Shown piece by piece: positions 13,780 through 32,237 of a stretch of 64,000 bases of DNA. A program made the translations under genes and the position numbers. The stretch is from an uncultured Piscirickettsiaceae bacterium. Its GTDB lineage: Bacteria; Pseudomonadota; Gammaproteobacteria; GCF-002020875. The stretch spans positions 36,065 to 100,064 of the forward strand of contig CAZKCT010000001.1 of NCBI GenBank assembly GCA_964551545.1. Direction: 5' to 3'. The notes under the pieces were generated by a model. It had not been told where the DNA came from and did not search any database. It saw nothing but the letters and a program-made list of their open reading frames with translations. Numbering within the stretch: the first letter of the stretch is position 1; the number at the start of each line of letters is the position of its first letter.

Positions 13780-15072
13780 TTAAATCGAGAGGCTGCCGCT
13801 GACCGAAAAAACCGGTGTCTCTTTGCCGCGGTTCTCCGGGGCACACCCCGCTGCGATCTCCAGGCACTTCTGCTGGTTCTCTTTAGCGATTTTGACAATG
13901 GAGGGGTCCAGCTTTTCACTTTCGACATATTGGTCGAGGATCTCGATGATTTGTGGAAGCTCCATCCCTTTTCGATAGGGGCGGTTCTGTGCGAGGGCCT
14001 GGAAGACATCGGCAACGGAGAGAATGCGTGCCTCAATGGAGAGGTTGTCCGGGGTGGGATGGAAGGGATAACCGGCGCGGTTGATTCCTTCATGGTGGTA
14101 GGCGGCCCAGAGGGCAATATCCTCGATCCCATCAATATAGCGCAGAATCTGGTAGGTCTCATAGCTGTGGCGATTCATGACCGAGCGCTCCATCTCATTG
14201 AGTGCGCCTGGTTTGTCGAGAATGGCGTCTGGCATCCTCAATTTGCCAATATCGTGGAGAAAGCCGGCAATCTCTACCTTGTCGACCTGCTCCTCTGAGA
14301 GCCCGTGGTGGGTGGCAAGGTAGCGTGCCAGTACCCCAACTCGGGTGGAGTGTTGCGCGGTAAAGGGACTTTTCTGATCGACAATATAGGAGATGATCAG
14401 TGCCATCTGTCGAATCTGCTCAAGATTGAGTGGTTGTCGTTGCTGAACCTTGCCCATCTCCCAGGTGAAACGGATCACATGGCGCTCCTCCAGTGCAACC
14501 CAGAAGGCCTCGGACTGTTGGATCTCTAGAAAGGCGTCGACCAGCTCAGAGTCAAAATAGTGGTCGCGATAACTCTCAATGGATCGAGTGACCTCCTCTT
14601 TAAAGAGCAGAATGTCCTTGCCGTAGTGGGCCGCTGACATCACATCGATGCGGTCCGAGAGGAAGATTAGATTGGCCCTGCGACGATCTTCCGGGCTGAG
14701 ATCGGTATTCTGTAATGTCTCCCACGGCGTGTGGTGGTGGAGAATCGGGAGCGCAAAGGGGGTGAGTGGTTTGAACTCTTTCAGTAACTGGTAGCCAATC
14801 TCACAGTGGATGTGAGCGTCTTCCCAGTCAAAATGGCTGACCAGGTTGTTGTGGACCTGATCAGAGGAGACACCGCAGTCATGGAGCAGTCCCAGCTCAA
14901 AGAGGAAGTGGATCTCGGAGGCCTCGTATCCGAGGTGGTGAGCCAGTTGAGTGGCGATGTAGCCGACCCGCTTACCGTGGTTGGTGTCGTTCATCCCCAC
15001 CAGGTCAACGGTGCTCTCAATTGCCAGCACCATCTGATGAGGGTCAATCTGTAGCGTGGAGGTTTGTGTCAT
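13780..15072 (-). CDS. Tandem HD-domain protein with a C-terminal canonical HD-GYP c-di-GMP phosphodiesterase domain
   Basis: C-terminal HDIGK ... HHEGINRAGYPFH (HD-GYP). The N-terminal half carries a second, degenerate HD-like domain (LLHDCGV ... HHHTPWE). Confidence 0.8.
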   Translation of the reverse strand: MTQTSTLQIDPHQMVLAIESTVDLVGMNDTNHGKRVGYIATQLAHHLGYEASEIHFLFELGLLHDCGVSSDQVHNNLVSHFDWEDAHIHCEIGYQLLKEFKPLTPFALPILHHHTPWETLQNTDLSPEDRRRANLIFLSDRIDVMSAAHYGKDILLFKEEVTRSIESYRDHYFDSELVDAFLEIQQSEAFWVALEERHVIRFTWEMGKVQQRQPLNLEQIRQMALIISYIVDQKSPFTAQHSTRVGVLARYLATHHGLSEEQVDKVEIAGFLHDIGKLRMPDAILDKPGALNEMERSVMNRHSYETYQILRYIDGIEDIALWAAYHHEGINRAGYPFHPTPDNLSIEARILSVADVFQALAQNRPYRKGMELPQIIEILDQYVESEKLDPSIVKIAKENQQKCLEIAAGCAPENRGKETPVFSVSGSLSI

Positions 15073-15311: not shown

Positions 15312-15635
15312 ATGGATGTATTGGAGAGAATTGATCAGCAGGTCAAGAACAACCCGGTGGTGATCTACATGAAAGGGACGCCGCAGTTTCCGGTTTGTGG
15401 TTTCTCAAGTCGTGCCTCGGCGGCACTCAAGCAGACAGGGGTCGAGTTCTCCTATGTCAATGTGCTGGAAGATCCGGAGATTTTCGAGAATCTGCCGCGC
15501 TATGCCGATTGGCCCACTTTCCCGCAGATCTATGTCGATGGGGAGCTGATTGGTGGCTGTGACATCACCCTGGAACTTCACGAAAAGGGTGAGTTGCAGT
15601 CGATGATGGAGGCAGCGACCCGGCAGGAGGGCTGA
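15312..15635 (+). CDS. grxD: Monothiol glutaredoxin Grx4 family
   Basis: CGFS active site (PQFPVCGFSSRA) and a WPTFPQIYVDGELIGG motif. The ATG at 15312 gives 107 aa. Confidence 0.85.
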   Translation: MDVLERIDQQVKNNPVVIYMKGTPQFPVCGFSSRASAALKQTGVEFSYVNVLEDPEIFENLPRYADWPTFPQIYVDGELIGGCDITLELHEKGELQSMMEAATRQEG

Positions 15636-15775
15636 TCCAGTCCAGAATCACGGCATTAGGTGGCCTGTCCAGTCGTCAAATATGGAATGGGCTATCTCAT
15701 CTGTTTGGGTGCCCCAATTGAATGGATCAATGGGTTGTTTTTCTAATGCTTTGAACAGTTGCCTGAATAGTTCCT

Positions 15776-15988
15776 ATGAGTGCATCATTGACGTTGGTAG
15801 ATAGTGACGAAACATTAGATCTTGAGTACATCATGTATGCTACTGATCGAGGATCGAGCACTAAGCATATTGGCGCACGTTTCTTGTGGCATTTCGATGG
15901 GACTACACTTAAATATGCAGGAGTAAATCCGTCTGATGTTGGTGGAGAATTAGTCTGGTCAAATGTGCGCCCGGTTGATGGACTGTAG
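15776..15988 (+). CDS. Orphan hypothetical protein (70 aa) in a low-GC islet
   Basis: An ORF only. There is no Shine-Dalgarno and no recognisable motif. It lies in the AT-richer segment between grxD and the toxin-antitoxin pair. Confidence 0.2.
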   Translation: MSASLTLVDSDETLDLEYIMYATDRGSSTKHIGARFLWHFDGTTLKYAGVNPSDVGGELVWSNVRPVDGL

Positions 15989-16207
15989 TGGCGTGCGTCA
16001 AGGGGGCCACTTCAAGAATCCAAGTTTTTATAAGTGACGGAGGAAGTTTTGTGGTCTCTGGTGTGGGGCGCGCTGGAGGGGTGTAGTTGATAGAATTGGG
16101 AATTTTCTGTCTGGGGCGCTACATTGGATGGTGTAAGGGGTTGGGTATGTCCTTTGGGGGTAGGTATTGCTGTGGCTCAAGTTGACGACTTGTCAAGAAC
16201 AAGCGGG

Positions 16208-16236
16208 TTGTCAATTGCTGAAAAAGAGACTATATT
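16208..16236 (+). promoter_or_regulatory. Sigma70-like promoter for the toxin-antitoxin operon
   Basis: TTGTCA at 16208-16213, a 17-nt spacer, then TATATT at 16231-16236. The GGGAG Shine-Dalgarno and the antitoxin ATG at 16271 follow. Confidence 0.5.
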
Positions 16237-16270
16237 CTGACTGAATTTAGTTCTCTGTTTTGGGAGTGAT

Positions 16271-16540
16271 ATGCACTATTCTACACAAATCAAGCCGATC
16301 AGCTACATCAAGGCCAATGCTGCAGAGGTGCTGGCGTCGTTGGCAGAGCAGCATCAGCCACTGGTGATTACGCAGAATGGAGAGGCCAAGGCCGTGCTTC
16401 AGGATATTTCCAGTTTTGAGGAGACGCAAGAGACGCTGGCGCTGCTAAAGGTTCTGGCGTTGGGTAATCAGGAGGTTGAGGCAGATCAACTGATTCCTGC
16501 AAGGGAGGCTATTTCTCAATTGCGTAGCAAGTACAGGTGA
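16271..16540 (+). CDS. Type II antitoxin, Phd/YefM family
   Basis: At 89 aa, the N-terminus (IKPISYIKANAAEVLASL ... PLVITQNGEAKAVL) is typical of Phd/YefM antitoxins. A GGGAG Shine-Dalgarno precedes it. It overlaps the downstream toxin by 4 nt. Confidence 0.7.
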   Translation: MHYSTQIKPISYIKANAAEVLASLAEQHQPLVITQNGEAKAVLQDISSFEETQETLALLKVLALGNQEVEADQLIPAREAISQLRSKYR

Positions 16541-16869
16541 GTAGTGATCTGTTTGAGGTGTTTTTGACGCAAGGGGCTGAACAGGATCTGCAGTCAATTA
16601 CCGATTATATTGCTCTGCATGACTCTCCAGAGCGTGCTGTATATGTGCTGGATCGGTTGCTTGAGGTGGTTACCAGTCTGGAGAATTTTCCGGAAAGAGG
16701 GGATTACCCTAAAGAGTTGTTAAGTTTGGGGATCAAGGAGTATCGTCAGCTTCACTTTAAACCCTACCGGTTGATTTACCGGATATTGGAAACACGGGTT
16801 GTGACCTATCTGATTGTGGATGGCAGGCGAGATTTCCAGTCTCTATTGGAACGCAGGTTACTGGGTTAA
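16537..16869 (+). CDS. Type II toxin, ParE/RelE superfamily
   Basis: A 110-aa protein directly coupled to the antitoxin (GTGA overlap), with a ParE-like C-terminus (YRLIYRILETRVVTYLIVDGRRD). Confidence 0.7.
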   Translation: MSSDLFEVFLTQGAEQDLQSITDYIALHDSPERAVYVLDRLLEVVTSLENFPERGDYPKELLSLGIKEYRQLHFKPYRLIYRILETRVVTYLIVDGRRDFQSLLERRLLG

Positions 16870-17507
16870 AGAGCTATCCCCTCAAATCGCCCACTCATCT
16901 GATCCCAATCGTTGACCATCTTGCAAAACAGTTTGGCGGTCTCCTCGGTATCGTAGAGTGCGGAGTGGGCTGCCTCGTGGTTCCACTCGACCTGGGCCGC
17001 CTCCGCCATCCGCGCCAGTACCGTCTGACCATAGAAGATGCCGCCCAGTGTTGCGGTATCAAAGCTGCTGAAGGAGTGGAACGGACTATTCTTGATCTTG
17101 CAGCGCTCAACGGCGGCGTTGACGAAACCAAGGTCAAACCAGGCATTGTGACCAATGAGAATGGCCCGGCTACAGCCGGTCGCTTTTACCGCCTTGCGGA
17201 TCGGGTCAAAGATGACCTTCAGTGCCTCCTTCTCCTCCACGGCCATACGGAACGGATGCCAGGGATCACTGAGGCCGATAAACTCCAGTGCCTTGGGATC
17301 CAGGTTGGCGTTCTTGAAGGGGAGTACGTGCTGCTCATGGCTCTCCTGAATCGCCAGCTGGCCATTCTCATCGTAATTGAGGATGGAGGCAGCAATCTCC
17401 AGCAGTGCATCCTTCTTGGCATCAAAACCACCGGTCTCGACATCGACCACAACCGGCAGAAAGCCGCGAAAGCGCTTTGCAATAGGGGATTTTCCACTCA
17501 TGCTCAA
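16866..17507 (-). CDS. rnt: Ribonuclease T
   Basis: DEDDh exonuclease motifs (VVVDVETGGFD, HNAWFDLGFV, AHSALYDT). Confidence 0.85.
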   Translation of the reverse strand: MSMSGKSPIAKRFRGFLPVVVDVETGGFDAKKDALLEIAASILNYDENGQLAIQESHEQHVLPFKNANLDPKALEFIGLSDPWHPFRMAVEEKEALKVIFDPIRKAVKATGCSRAILIGHNAWFDLGFVNAAVERCKIKNSPFHSFSSFDTATLGGIFYGQTVLARMAEAAQVEWNHEAAHSALYDTEETAKLFCKMVNDWDQMSGRFEGIAL

Positions 17508-18883
17508 TTCCCCTCCAGGGTACGAAGAAAGACCTTGGAGTTGCGTTTGTAGTTGTAGAGTGACTGGCGCTCAACAGGCAGGTCTGCCAGTTTTGCAGGC
17601 TCATACCCCTGTTCACGGAACCAGTGGCTGGTGCGGGTAGAGAGGACAAAGAGCTGGCGAATCGTCGATCCATCTTTCTGTAGTTGTTGATCGATATGTT
17701 GGAGCAGCAGATCACCCCGCCCCTCATCGCGATAGTCGGGGTGGATTGCAAGGCCGGCGATCTCGGCGACACCGTGACTGGGGTAGGGGTAGAGGGCGAC
17801 TGTGCCAATGATGGTGCCATCACGCTCCATCACCGTGAAGTGGTTGATCTCGATCTCCAGTAGCTCGCGAGAGCGGGGAACCAGAATGCCCTCCTCCTCC
17901 AGTGGCTGGATCAGCTCGATAATGCCGCCCACATCTTCAATCGATGCAGGGCGGATCTGGTCGTAGCGGTCGGCGCAGATCATGGTGCCGATGCCGTCAC
18001 GGGTGAAGAGCTCCTGCAGCAGACTGCCGCTCTCGATGCTGTCGATCAGGTGGGCACGCGGCACCCCCTGGCGACAGGCGTGGATGGCACTGATCAGGTG
18101 GCGTGCGGTCTGTTCTGGCAGTTTCTTGCGTTGTTCAAGTGTCTGCTCCGCCTCGTCCGGGGTGAGTTGACGTATCAGCCTCTTGCGCTGGTCAAGCAGC
18201 CCCGGCTCGTTGATCAGCGAGAGCATCTTGTCGGCCTCCAGCTGAATCGCCGCTGAGGTCGCCACATCCTCGCTGCTGAGGTTGAAGATCTCACCGGTGG
18301 GGGAGGTGCCGATTGGGGAGAGCAGCACGATGAACCCACTGTCGAGCAGCTGCTCAATGGCAGGGACATCAATTCTCCGAACCTCTCCAGTATGTTGATA
18401 GTCGACCCCTTCACGAACCCCCAGCGGGCGTGCGGTAACGAAGTTTCCAGAAGTGGTGCGAATGTCAGCGCCTGACATGGGGGAGTTGGGAAGGCCAGTA
18501 GAGAGCGCGCCCTCTAGTTCGAGGCGAATAGTTCCAACCGCCTCTTTGACGCAGAGCAGGGCCTCATCATTGGTGACCCGCAGGCCGTTGATGATCTCGC
18601 TTTCGCTATCGAAATCCTGTAGCCGCTCCTCAATTTGTGGGCGTGCGCCCGGCACCAGAACCAGACGGACGCCCAGGCTGTTGAGTAGCGCGAGATCCTG
18701 AATCAGCTCATGGAAGTGCTGATCCTTCAGCATCTCGCCGCCAAAGGTGATGACGAAGGTTCGCCCTCGATGTGCGTTAATATAGGGAGCCGCCCCACGG
18801 AACTGGGTGACAAAGTCGAGGGCCTGTCGACGAGCGTTACTGCCTCGTCTCTTTTTGGTTGCGGCTTTTTTGGTAGTCGTCAC
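17504..18883 (-). CDS. argA: Amino-acid N-acetyltransferase (N-acetylglutamate synthase)
   Basis: An amino-acid-kinase fold followed by a GNAT domain. Collinear with E. coli ArgA (PYINAHRGRTFVI, LFTRDGIGT). Has a lysine-rich N-terminal extension. Confidence 0.9.
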   Translation of the reverse strand: MTTTKKAATKKRRGSNARRQALDFVTQFRGAAPYINAHRGRTFVITFGGEMLKDQHFHELIQDLALLNSLGVRLVLVPGARPQIEERLQDFDSESEIINGLRVTNDEALLCVKEAVGTIRLELEGALSTGLPNSPMSGADIRTTSGNFVTARPLGVREGVDYQHTGEVRRIDVPAIEQLLDSGFIVLLSPIGTSPTGEIFNLSSEDVATSAAIQLEADKMLSLINEPGLLDQRKRLIRQLTPDEAEQTLEQRKKLPEQTARHLISAIHACRQGVPRAHLIDSIESGSLLQELFTRDGIGTMICADRYDQIRPASIEDVGGIIELIQPLEEEGILVPRSRELLEIEINHFTVMERDGTIIGTVALYPYPSHGVAEIAGLAIHPDYRDEGRGDLLLQHIDQQLQKDGSTIRQLFVLSTRTSHWFREQGYEPAKLADLPVERQSLYNYKRNSKVFLRTLEGN

Positions 18884-30957: not shown

Positions 30958-31182
30958 CGGAGATCTCCTCAATCAGTCGTGATCTTTCTGAGAGATACTC
31001 TATCAATGTTGGATTGATTTCAAGAATGGCGTCTTGTGGTGAGCTGCATCAGAAAGTACTTATAAATTTTTATCTATTTCTATAGATCCCTTGGGCAGGG
31101 TATGATCAGTTTTCATGATATATTTAGTGGCTCCTGGCAGAGGGGCAGATGCGTTGGCCAAGGTAATGAAGGGTAGTATTGA

Positions 31183-31632
31183 ATGAACCGTTCTGATAAC
31201 GAAGTGACAGATACTTTAGAGAAGTTTGTCTGGAGCCAGGATCGCTATGGGGTTGGTGATGATGAAATTGATCGGCAGCACCGAGGGATCTTGGAGGTTA
31301 TTAATGGTCTGATCGAACAGGTGAATGAAGGGAGCCATGATCCAAAAGCACTGGTTGAGGTGTTGGTGGAACTGAATGATTATGCAGTCAAGCATTTTCA
31401 GGCTGAGGAGTCATTGCTGAAGCGGTTGGGATATCCACTGCTGGAACATCAACACCATTCTCACGGTTACTATACAGAGAAAGTGTCTGGTTTTTTGTTA
31501 TCAATGAAACAAGAACAGGTTGCTTTAGAGGATGTTCTTGAATTTATAGGGATGTGGTGGGAGCAGCATATCTTGGTTGAGGATATGGGGTTTAAGGCGT
31601 TTCTTCAGGCTAAACAAGTCCCTCAGGCGTGA
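31183..31632 (+). CDS. Hemerythrin-like (bacteriohemerythrin) protein
   Basis: HHE cation-binding domain pattern (W...IDRQHRGILEVING, H...EE, LEHQHH). Confidence 0.7.
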   Translation: MNRSDNEVTDTLEKFVWSQDRYGVGDDEIDRQHRGILEVINGLIEQVNEGSHDPKALVEVLVELNDYAVKHFQAEESLLKRLGYPLLEHQHHSHGYYTEKVSGFLLSMKQEQVALEDVLEFIGMWWEQHILVEDMGFKAFLQAKQVPQA

Positions 31633-32237
31633 TAAGGCAGCCGCTCAAAACGGTAGATTGCAGTCTCTCCGAGTAGATTAGGAGCTAGTTTTAGTAGTGC
31701 CGCCTTGCGGTGCTGGTGGTCAACCACCGTACGCTCCAGGATTCGAATCCCTTTTTGTTGGCAGAGCGCCTCGAAGTCGCTGACTGTACAGAGATGAATG
31801 TTGGGGGTGTTGTACCAGGTGTTGGGCAGGGTCTTGGTGACCGGCATTTTTCCACCAAACATCAGCTGCCAGCGATTTTTCCAGTGACCAAAGTTAGGAA
31901 AGGTGATGATCCCCTGTTTTCCGACCCGTAGCATCTCGTCCAGGAGTTGATCGGGGTAGTTCATCGCCTGCAGGGTGAGGCTCATGATGACGTAGTCAAA
32001 AGAGTCATCATCAAAGTATTCGCTCAGTCCATGATCAAGGTCTGACTGAATTACCTGAATACCGTTCTCCAGGCAGCTAAGGATATTGTGGTCATCCAAC
32101 TCCAGTCCATACCCTGCTACCTGATGGTGATCCATCATGTGGCGCAGCAGTGTCCCGTCTCCACAACCAAGATCGAGGACCTGACTGCCGCTCTCGATCC
32201 AGTCGCAAATGATCTCTTGATCGGCGCGTAGGCTCAT
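31623..32237 (-). CDS. metW: Methionine biosynthesis protein MetW
   Basis: SAM-methyltransferase-like MetW ([12 protein letters not shown]). It overlaps the metX stop by 4 nt. Confidence 0.85.

Follow-up and report, generated by a model that had tools for sequence, protein, structure and literature searches.

A probable composite islet between grxD and rnt of an uncultured marine gammaproteobacterium: a Phd-ParE toxin-antitoxin operon beside the apparent relic of a secreted-protein gene

Results

Locus and base composition

The window analyzed here is a stretch of 64,000 nucleotides from an uncultured marine gammaproteobacterium (GenBank assembly GCA_964551545.1, contig CAZKCT010000001.1), and the element under study is the DNA that separates the genes grxD and rnt within it. 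Between the grxD stop (15635) and the rnt stop (16866) lie 1,234 bp with a guanine-plus-cytosine (GC) content of 47.2%, compared to 54.7% for the window, which agrees with the AT-richer 1.2 kb that a first-pass annotation, made by a model from the letters of the DNA, had described there. This interval very probably represents a composite foreign islet, consisting of an intact Phd-ParE toxin-antitoxin operon, the relic of a secreted-protein gene, and non-coding filler, in which the toxin-antitoxin insertion would be old. Its features, followed by the flanking genes, are listed below (aa, amino acids).

16208-16236, plus strand: sigma-70-type promoter, TTGTCA, 17-nt spacer, TATATT, with 10 of 12 consensus positions
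16228-16242, plus strand: likely antitoxin operator core GACTATATTCTGACT (predicted), overlapping the -10 box
16262-16266, plus strand: Shine-Dalgarno sequence GGGAG for phd, read from the sequence
16271-16540, plus strand: phd, Phd/YefM-family antitoxin gene, 89 aa (PF02604, 1.2e-15; TIGR01552)
16537-16869, plus strand: parE, ParE-type toxin gene, 110 aa, GTG start (PF05016, 9.2e-18)
15764-15988, plus strand: apparent relic of a secreted-protein gene, 3' end, from an in-frame TGA at 15764 to the native stop at 15986-15988
15989-16204, no strand: G-run-rich non-coding segment, with the G runs within 16002-16160
15636-15763, no strand: left filler, 128 bp, non-coding, without a family, plasmid, or phage match
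16182-16196, no strand: palindrome TTGACGACTTGTCAA upstream of the promoter, partly kept in the second carrier lineage, L056 (see below)
15312-15635, plus strand: grxD, left flank, Grx4-type monothiol glutaredoxin (TIGR00365, 147 bits against a cut-off of 117; PF00462, 6e-21)
16866-17507, minus strand: rnt, right flank, RNase T (TIGR01298, 284 bits against a cut-off of 246)
13780-15072, minus strand: HD-domain protein gene, left of grxD
17504-18883, minus strand: argA, beyond rnt

Among all 1,234-nt windows of the 64 kb, the islet falls in the lowest 0.4% for GC content. One kilobase elsewhere (31001-32000) is as GC poor as the islet (46.7%) and yet houses the housekeeping gene metW, so GC depletion alone is no proof of foreign DNA in this genome. 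(In that kilobase, metW [31623-32237] adjoins a hemerythrin-like open reading frame [ORF; 31183-31632].) With respect to hallmarks of mobility, no tRNA gene was found in the 64-kb window, no integrase or transposase gene was found between grxD and rnt, and flanking direct repeats at the islet did not exceed chance matches. Other copies of 15636-16270 inside the window were limited to chance matches of 11 to 12 nt, and Rfam at the gathering threshold returned no family anywhere in the 64 kb.

The Phd-ParE operon

The antitoxin product scored 57.4 bits with PF02604 (cut-off, 29.8) and 40 bits with TIGR01552 (cut-off, 20.8), and the toxin product scored 65.1 bits with PF05016 (cut-off, 23). The NCBIfam RelE_StbE model reached 25 bits on the toxin, under its cut-off of 27.9, and the NCBIfam YefM equivalog model reached 17 bits on the antitoxin, far under its cut-off of 121. 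The phd stop and the parE start overlap by 4 nt (GTGA, 16537-16540). These family matches, together with the overlap and the promoter at 16208-16236, confirmed both the Phd/YefM-ParE identity and the tight coupling of an antitoxin-toxin pair with its own promoter, which had been proposed at first reading.

A profile of the toxin family, built from ParE and eleven homologues, was searched against the PDB. The top ranks were taken by 6x0a, PfiT (9w3a), 5czf, and 5cw7, which matched over the full length at 3e-6 to 2e-4, while RelE matched over the last 30 residues only and at 8e-3 or weaker. By this comparison, the toxin is nearer ParE than RelE. The antitoxin matched PfiA (9w3a, 8e-6) and YefM (2a6q, 4e-3). 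ParE is full length save for the last residue of the family, whose alignment shows 48 of the 110 positions to be invariant. The stretch from ~16205 to 16869 thereby has the appearance of an intact, minimal type II toxin-antitoxin operon. The PADLOC defence models gave no match to the antitoxin, to the toxin, or to the product of a 70-aa ORF that lies upstream of them (see below).

The family to which the pair belongs is large, with 3,668 relatives of the toxin and more than 7,600 of the antitoxin, and identity to these relatives plateaus at 65 to 77% in beta- and gammaproteobacteria. Close homologues of the toxin carry the JGI label "toxin ParE1/3/4." In 79 of 80 metagenomic loci of the family, ParE is encoded directly downstream of a Phd relative; neither grxD nor rnt is a neighbour in any of the 80, and the window DNA ahead of the promoter (15636-16200) has no match among them. 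All 80 metagenomic relatives examined lie in other genomic contexts, which shows that the Phd-ParE family is mobile as well as very widespread.

At its right end, the operon abuts rnt so closely that the rnt stop and the parE stop have the tetranucleotide TTAA in common. Given this shared TTAA and a toxin that misses just the last residue of its family, we place the transferred unit at ~16205-16866, with the -35 box essentially at one end and the final toxin codon at the other. The edges of this insert are unusually sharp.

Promoter and operator

The -10 region of the promoter is kept in L056 and in 72 of 78 family loci. The consensus of the operator region over 70 family loci is GGACcaTaAAAaGACTATATTcAGTCC, and the upstream consensus of the family loci reads cTTGCga.aGGACcaTaAAAaGACTATATTcAGTCC, with the -10 box inside a palindrome. 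This palindrome of the family presumably serves as the operator. Both promoter boxes (-35 and -10) and a GACT...GACT core are retained in the window; of the family palindrome GGACT...AGTCC, only this core is left.

Related genomes and the age of the insertion

The RNase T protein was used to scan one genome per species, which yielded 52 loci. The closest of these belonged to marine metagenome-assembled gammaproteobacteria labelled Piscirickettsiaceae, Thiotrichales, or Methylophaga and not to enterobacteria. The initial description had taken grxD and rnt as conserved close neighbours in enterobacteria, a frame that does not apply to this marine genome and that fails for Escherichia coli K-12 itself, in which lhr separates convergent rnt and grxD genes (NC_000913.3, 1728347-1734101). 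In 12 related species whose RNase T is 72 to 91% identical to that of the window, argA, rnt, and grxD occur in the same order, and rnt and grxD are convergent with a spacing of -8 to ~70 bp. DNA comparison with these 12 relatives revealed no homology to 15636-16869; homology breaks off at ~15620-15630 and starts again at ~16875. More distant relatives (L016, L032, L033, L039, L040, L041, and L046) have peroxiredoxin, response regulator, or cytochrome-like genes between rnt and grxD. Since the cargo at this junction differs across gammaproteobacteria, genes come and go there, and the rnt/grxD junction is a recurrent place of gene gain and loss.

The closest homologue of the toxin (75% identity) was found on contigs L056 and L057, where it likewise lies between grxD and rnt. 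The right junction in L056 is identical to that of the window, and the grxD-phd spacer is only 181 bp. Over window positions 16271-16869 and L056:1634-2231, amino acid identity is 91% for the antitoxin and 75% for the toxin. The ratio of nonsynonymous to synonymous divergence (dN/dS) between window and L056 was 0.095 for phd (synonymous divergence [dS], 0.45), 0.153 for parE (dS, 1.04), 0.086 for grxD (dS, 1.0), and 0.062 for rnt (dS, 0.8). The low dN/dS values of phd and parE argue that the module is functional (a prediction), and the shared junctions and flank-like divergence in L056 indicate that the toxin-antitoxin insertion is old and not private to the window genome. Judged from these divergences, the module appears to be as old as the split between window and L056 and to have been under purifying selection. 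The dS of the antitoxin (0.45) is about half of the toxin and flank values (0.8 to 1.04), which may reflect constraint on overlapping regulatory or coupling sequence or partial gene conversion.

These comparisons divide the earlier proposal of horizontal acquisition in two. An insertion relative to the 12 related species is upheld; the implied recency is not, since L056/L057 has the same pair at an identical junction. Relatives with the same genes at the same position had been named in advance as counting against the proposal, and L056/L057 is in part such a case; toxin-antitoxin family matches, which had also been looked to, were found.

The distribution of the module in the clade is patchy. 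The argA product of L056 is 92% identical to that of L004, 84% to that of L045, and 83% to that of L006 but 70% to that of the window, and a desulfoferrodoxin-like left neighbour is common to L056 and L045; the relationship of L056 to the other lineages is drawn here from three genes and is not a resolved phylogeny. L045 and L006 are without the module, and L004 is rearranged on the grxD side. Such a pattern would need either several losses or spread among related lineages via flank recombination.

A vertical history, in which the pair was ancestral to the clade and was lost in most relatives rather than acquired by this genome, is one way to read these data. It is favored by the identical junctions and flank-like dS in L056 and by the fact that L056 is nearer the pair-less L004, L045, and L006 than the window, in identity of argA, rnt, and grxD and in left-flank synteny, so that a single gain would need several losses. 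However, the 12 species with rnt identity of 72 to 91% show no scar, the pair has a GC content of 46 to 51% in both carriers compared to 54 to 57% in the flanks, and its nearest relatives (70 to 77% identity) are in unrelated bacteria and unrelated contexts. Transfer among related lineages, by way of recombination in grxD and rnt, accounts for the patchiness just as well, and even on a vertical history the pair would first have entered the clade by transfer. We therefore consider it unlikely that the islet was not horizontally acquired.

The closest sampled relative of L056 is L004 (L004:5637-9479; RNase T, 96% identical), in which rnt is not followed by grxD. A gene for a 472-aa periplasmic-binding-like protein and one for a 777-aa sensor kinase come after rnt instead, and the breakpoint is the same rnt 3' end that houses the islet in the window.

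The 70-aa open reading frame

The 70-aa ORF (15776-15988, with its ATG at 15776) had been described as an orphan. A word-indexed search of 5.8 billion proteins with this ORF returned only the ORF itself, and when 15636-16270 was shuffled, 39% of the shuffles contained an ORF of 70 aa or more, so that length alone is no evidence for a gene. The suggestion from the word-indexed search that this is a chance ORF was overturned by an exhaustive HMMER search. In an exhaustive phmmer search of 1.84 billion representatives, 12 matches were obtained (best, 4e-10), all at the extreme C terminus of the matched protein. The matched proteins, of 331 to 342 aa, have a signal peptide, are Cys rich in their N-terminal part, and align over their last 66 to 79 residues; the ORF and the family members end in a common DGL and are 42 to 48% identical. 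When the family was searched back on the window with tblastn, it matched 15767-15985 (E values of 6e-15 to 8e-10), and the homology reaches upstream of the ATG as far as the in-frame TGA at 15764.

A hidden Markov model (HMM) of the family was built from six full-length or near-full-length members. Over all frames of 15500-16320, only HMM positions 256-331 of 331 were present (E value of 8e-18), and nothing beyond this segment was found. The 64-kb window contains no PF11924 barrel gene, no N-terminal part, and no full-length copy of the family. With only positions 256-331 of 331 and no barrel gene in the window, the sequence at 15764-15988 is a relic of a family member and not a member itself. 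The homology thus points to the ORF as the last 23% of a gene for a secreted protein of ~335 aa, that is, the 3' relic of a foreign gene. The first-pass annotation was right that an ORF is present at 15776-15988 and that the interval could hold a remnant of a larger element, which applies to this ORF; the ORF is not an orphan and probably not a gene.

The composition of the ORF is in agreement with such a history. Its GC content at third codon positions is 0.37, compared to 0.68 in host genes, which fits a low-GC donor; together with the GC rank of the islet, this bears out the difference in composition that profiling of GC and codon usage had been expected to reveal. Its codon-position signal (chi-square, 8.9) is below that of 97.5% of equal-length pieces of host genes, and this weak periodicity and the shuffle results fit a relic from a donor of different composition. 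No Shine-Dalgarno sequence was found upstream of the ORF in the sequence.

Full-length family genes directly follow a gene for an inverse-autotransporter barrel of ~305 aa (PF11924) on contigs of 36 to 41% GC. They are sometimes tandem paralogues and occur on low-GC marine contigs. Pfam and NCBIfam hold no model for the ~335-aa secreted family. The loci with family and barrel genes were L145:1-1651, L148:2-1594, L149:403-2359, L150:1284-3211, L151:1-1720, and L152:3-1551, and the C-terminal domain of the family has an ELWxxDGT-like motif. The pairing of barrel and secreted-protein genes could represent a split, two-gene version of an intimin/invasin-type adhesin.

One alternative is that the ORF encodes an expressed small protein, a stand-alone C-terminal domain of the secreted family kept for its own function. 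The frame is open over 73 codons and its identity to the family holds up to the terminal DGL, two 100-aa database proteins (P0247 and P0253) carry this domain only, and some gene callers predict the ORF. P0247, however, starts inside the conserved CDP motif of the family and is probably a truncated gene call. In addition to the lack of a Shine-Dalgarno sequence and the weak codon-position signal, no signal peptide is left, the homology does not begin at the ATG but reaches back to an in-frame stop, as in a truncated gene, the sole within-species single-nucleotide polymorphism in the ORF alters an amino acid, the ORF is absent from L056, and its AlphaFold model has a predicted local distance difference test score (pLDDT) of 57. 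A functional small protein is thus very unlikely, and the pseudogene relic is most likely not expressed.

The G-run segment and remaining filler

Between the relic and the promoter, runs of 3 to 5 G start at 16002, 16065, 16078, 16098, 16113, 16137, 16143, and 16156, which verifies the G-tract-rich non-coding stretch recorded at first reading. The interval 16002-16160 is 40% G and 12% C. No other part of the 64 kb has a higher mean G4Hunter score over 100 or 150 nt, and at 0.49 the GC skew of the segment ranks within the top 0.2% of the window. The C/G ratio of its minus-strand RNA is up to 5.5, a value reached by 0.03% of 78-nt windows.

Searches for an identity of this DNA gave negative results. 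A regular-expression scan for canonical G-quadruplexes (four runs of at least 3 G, loops of at most 12 nt) found none in 15990-16200, where the loops are 2 to 20 nt, while canonical motifs occur elsewhere in the window. Rfam at a permissive threshold (to an E value of 1) gave no match in the segment and one chance snoRNA match elsewhere. No tandem repeats were found in the segment, and no codon periodicity was detectable in it. Six-frame pieces of 15600-16300 searched against Pfam and PHROGs yielded nothing below an E value of 0.08, and distant blastn of 15636-16270 against plasmids and phages gave no match. Exact-pattern scans of viral and metagenome contigs found none, in a metagenome collection that itself lacks the locus of this species. 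No intrinsic terminator was predicted on either strand between grxD and rnt. The fold z-scores of the segment were -2.05 for the plus strand and -0.54 for the minus strand, and a third z-score in the structured-RNA test was -0.76. The small RNA once envisaged for this region was not borne out: nothing supports a structured small RNA, given the lack of an Rfam match, the fold z-scores, and the absence of the segment from L056.

In L056, the relic and the G-run segment are both absent, and homology to the window restarts only at ~16160-16205, near the palindrome at 16182-16196. Positions 15735-15767 weakly match part of the L056 spacer, with a score of 22 compared to 16.2 +/- 2.1 for shuffles (roughly P = 0.01 to 0.02). 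If this match is real, the relic and the G-run segment (~15768-16155) form one block that was lost in L056 or gained in the window lineage. The remaining DNA of the islet, at 15636-15763 and 15989-16204, is non-coding filler.

The G-run segment (~16000-16180) might alternatively be a functional nucleic acid element, acting as a G-quadruplex regulator upstream of the toxin-antitoxin promoter or as a minus-strand Rho-utilization site that stops argA-rnt read-through before it becomes antisense to grxD. The G4Hunter means, the skew, the rare C/G ratio of the minus strand, the plus-strand z-score, and the lack of a predicted intrinsic terminator on either strand between grxD and rnt all lend it some plausibility. 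Set against these are the lack of a canonical quadruplex motif with loops of at most 12 nt, the lack of an Rfam match, and a minus-strand z-score of -0.54; no homologue was found, hence there is neither covariation nor conservation. The segment is also missing from L056, the only other lineage with the same operon, so the operon can do without it. A functional element of this kind is very unlikely. In a related proposal, the segment would be a lineage-specific regulatory element born of the joining of foreign fragments, either a long-loop G-quadruplex upstream of the toxin-antitoxin promoter or a minus-strand Rho-utilization site insulating the convergent grxD and argA-rnt units, whose short common terminator region was lost on insertion; this we regard as speculative and highly improbable.

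Several other candidate explanations were rejected. The inverted repeat I2, of which the palindrome TTGACGACTTGTCAA is the right arm, suggested terminal inverted repeats (15666-15679 and 16182-16195) as the ends of a miniature element, but L056 has the right arm too, without the extra DNA. The idea that the G-rich segment contains a further, more degraded copy of the relic domain was dismissed when the family HMM found nothing there. A similar G-rich stretch upstream of the related module of L064 proved to be the 3' end of a high-GC upstream gene and a coincidence. The core motif of an integron attC site is GTTRRRY, to which the junction GTTAAAG does not fit, and no integrase lies nearby; an integron cassette was discarded.

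Within the segment, a look-alike of a ribosome-binding site, AAGGGG (16135-16140), precedes an ATG at 16147. This ATG opens a 12-codon frame, MSFGGRYCCGSS, which ends inside the TTGACGACTTGTCAA palindrome and is absent from L056. The frame is probably a by-product of G richness.

Discussion

The data above are best accounted for by a composite foreign islet. It is an ordinary small genomic islet, and its Phd-ParE module is of a well-known kind. By analogy with the known action of Phd/YefM antitoxins and ParE toxins, a dimer of the Phd-type antitoxin would bind and neutralize the ParE toxin, and antitoxin and toxin together would repress the promoter through the operator overlapping the -10 box. 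The antitoxin would be broken down more quickly than the toxin; when synthesis stops, free ParE would poison DNA gyrase and growth would be arrested. With a toxin that outlasts its antitoxin and whose free form arrests growth, the module would persist as a selfish addiction element, and it may incidentally stabilize the locus or act against phages. Of the gene behind the relic, the 5' three quarters are gone, as is the barrel gene.

Only one solved complex, PfiT/PfiA of the Pseudomonas aeruginosa Pf4 prophage (9w3a), has both partners matching the pair of the window (PMC7264888, PMC13048266). The match of the window toxin to PfiT stands at 9e-4 for the toxin alone and at 4e-6 when the family profile is used; that of the antitoxin to PfiA stands at 8e-6. 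Both operons have the antitoxin gene first and a gene for a ParE/RelE-superfamily toxin second, but the sequence kinship is distant. One report describes a special C-terminal extension of PfiT and an unusual DNA-binding domain of PfiA (PMC13048266). PfiT/PfiA belongs to a filamentous prophage, whose phage production it controls, whereas the pair of the window is flanked by housekeeping genes and has no phage genes in its vicinity.

The best full-length structural-database matches of the toxin (3e-6 to 2e-4) are toxins of the ParDE and PaaA2-ParE2 systems (6x0a, 5czf, and 5cw7). Those toxins pair with a ParD- or PaaA2-type antitoxin, whereas the window toxin pairs with one of Phd/YefM type; mixed toxin-antitoxin pairings are documented as common (PMC3141249). 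Gyrase poisoning by the window ParE is what we infer by analogy to these toxins. The operon resembles YefM-YoeB and Phd-Doc in the fold family of its antitoxin (PF02604, TIGR01552; 2a6q, 4e-3), in the position of the antitoxin gene in front, and in a presumed operator that overlaps the promoter. It differs from both in its toxin, which is ParE-like and not YoeB or Doc.

Several observations sit less comfortably with a composite islet of this makeup. Since the family palindrome is only partly retained, the operator in the window lineage may comprise the central GACT/-10 core only, and autoregulation may differ from that of the family. The activity and the target that we infer for the toxin derive from family membership only. 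The relic keeps a 73-codon open frame with an internal ATG, from which translation of a mini-protein is possible. Neutral filler would not usually show a G/C asymmetry as extreme as that of 16002-16160. The AlphaFold models of ParE (12-sequence alignment; pLDDT, 48) and of the ORF (single sequence; pLDDT, 57) are too poor for use and add nothing.

As one more chromosomal Phd-ParE module in a family with thousands of members, the operon carries little weight beyond annotation. Its sharp edges, at the -35 box and the final toxin codon, show how little DNA a transferred toxin-antitoxin unit needs to comprise and that the insertion point of such a unit can coincide exactly with a housekeeping gene's stop codon. 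The module also appears to have been kept under purifying selection over a dS of ~1 in two lineages, neither of which is the closest relative of the other. The ORF, which was matchless in a word-indexed search of 5.8 billion proteins and emerged as a relic once every representative was scored, urges caution on calls of "orphan" genes.

A minor observation concerns the window as a whole. On the plus strand, G exceeds C in nearly all 1-kb bins, and the cumulative skew climbs almost monotonically, from which it follows that the whole window is probably part of a single replichore in which the plus strand is the leading one.

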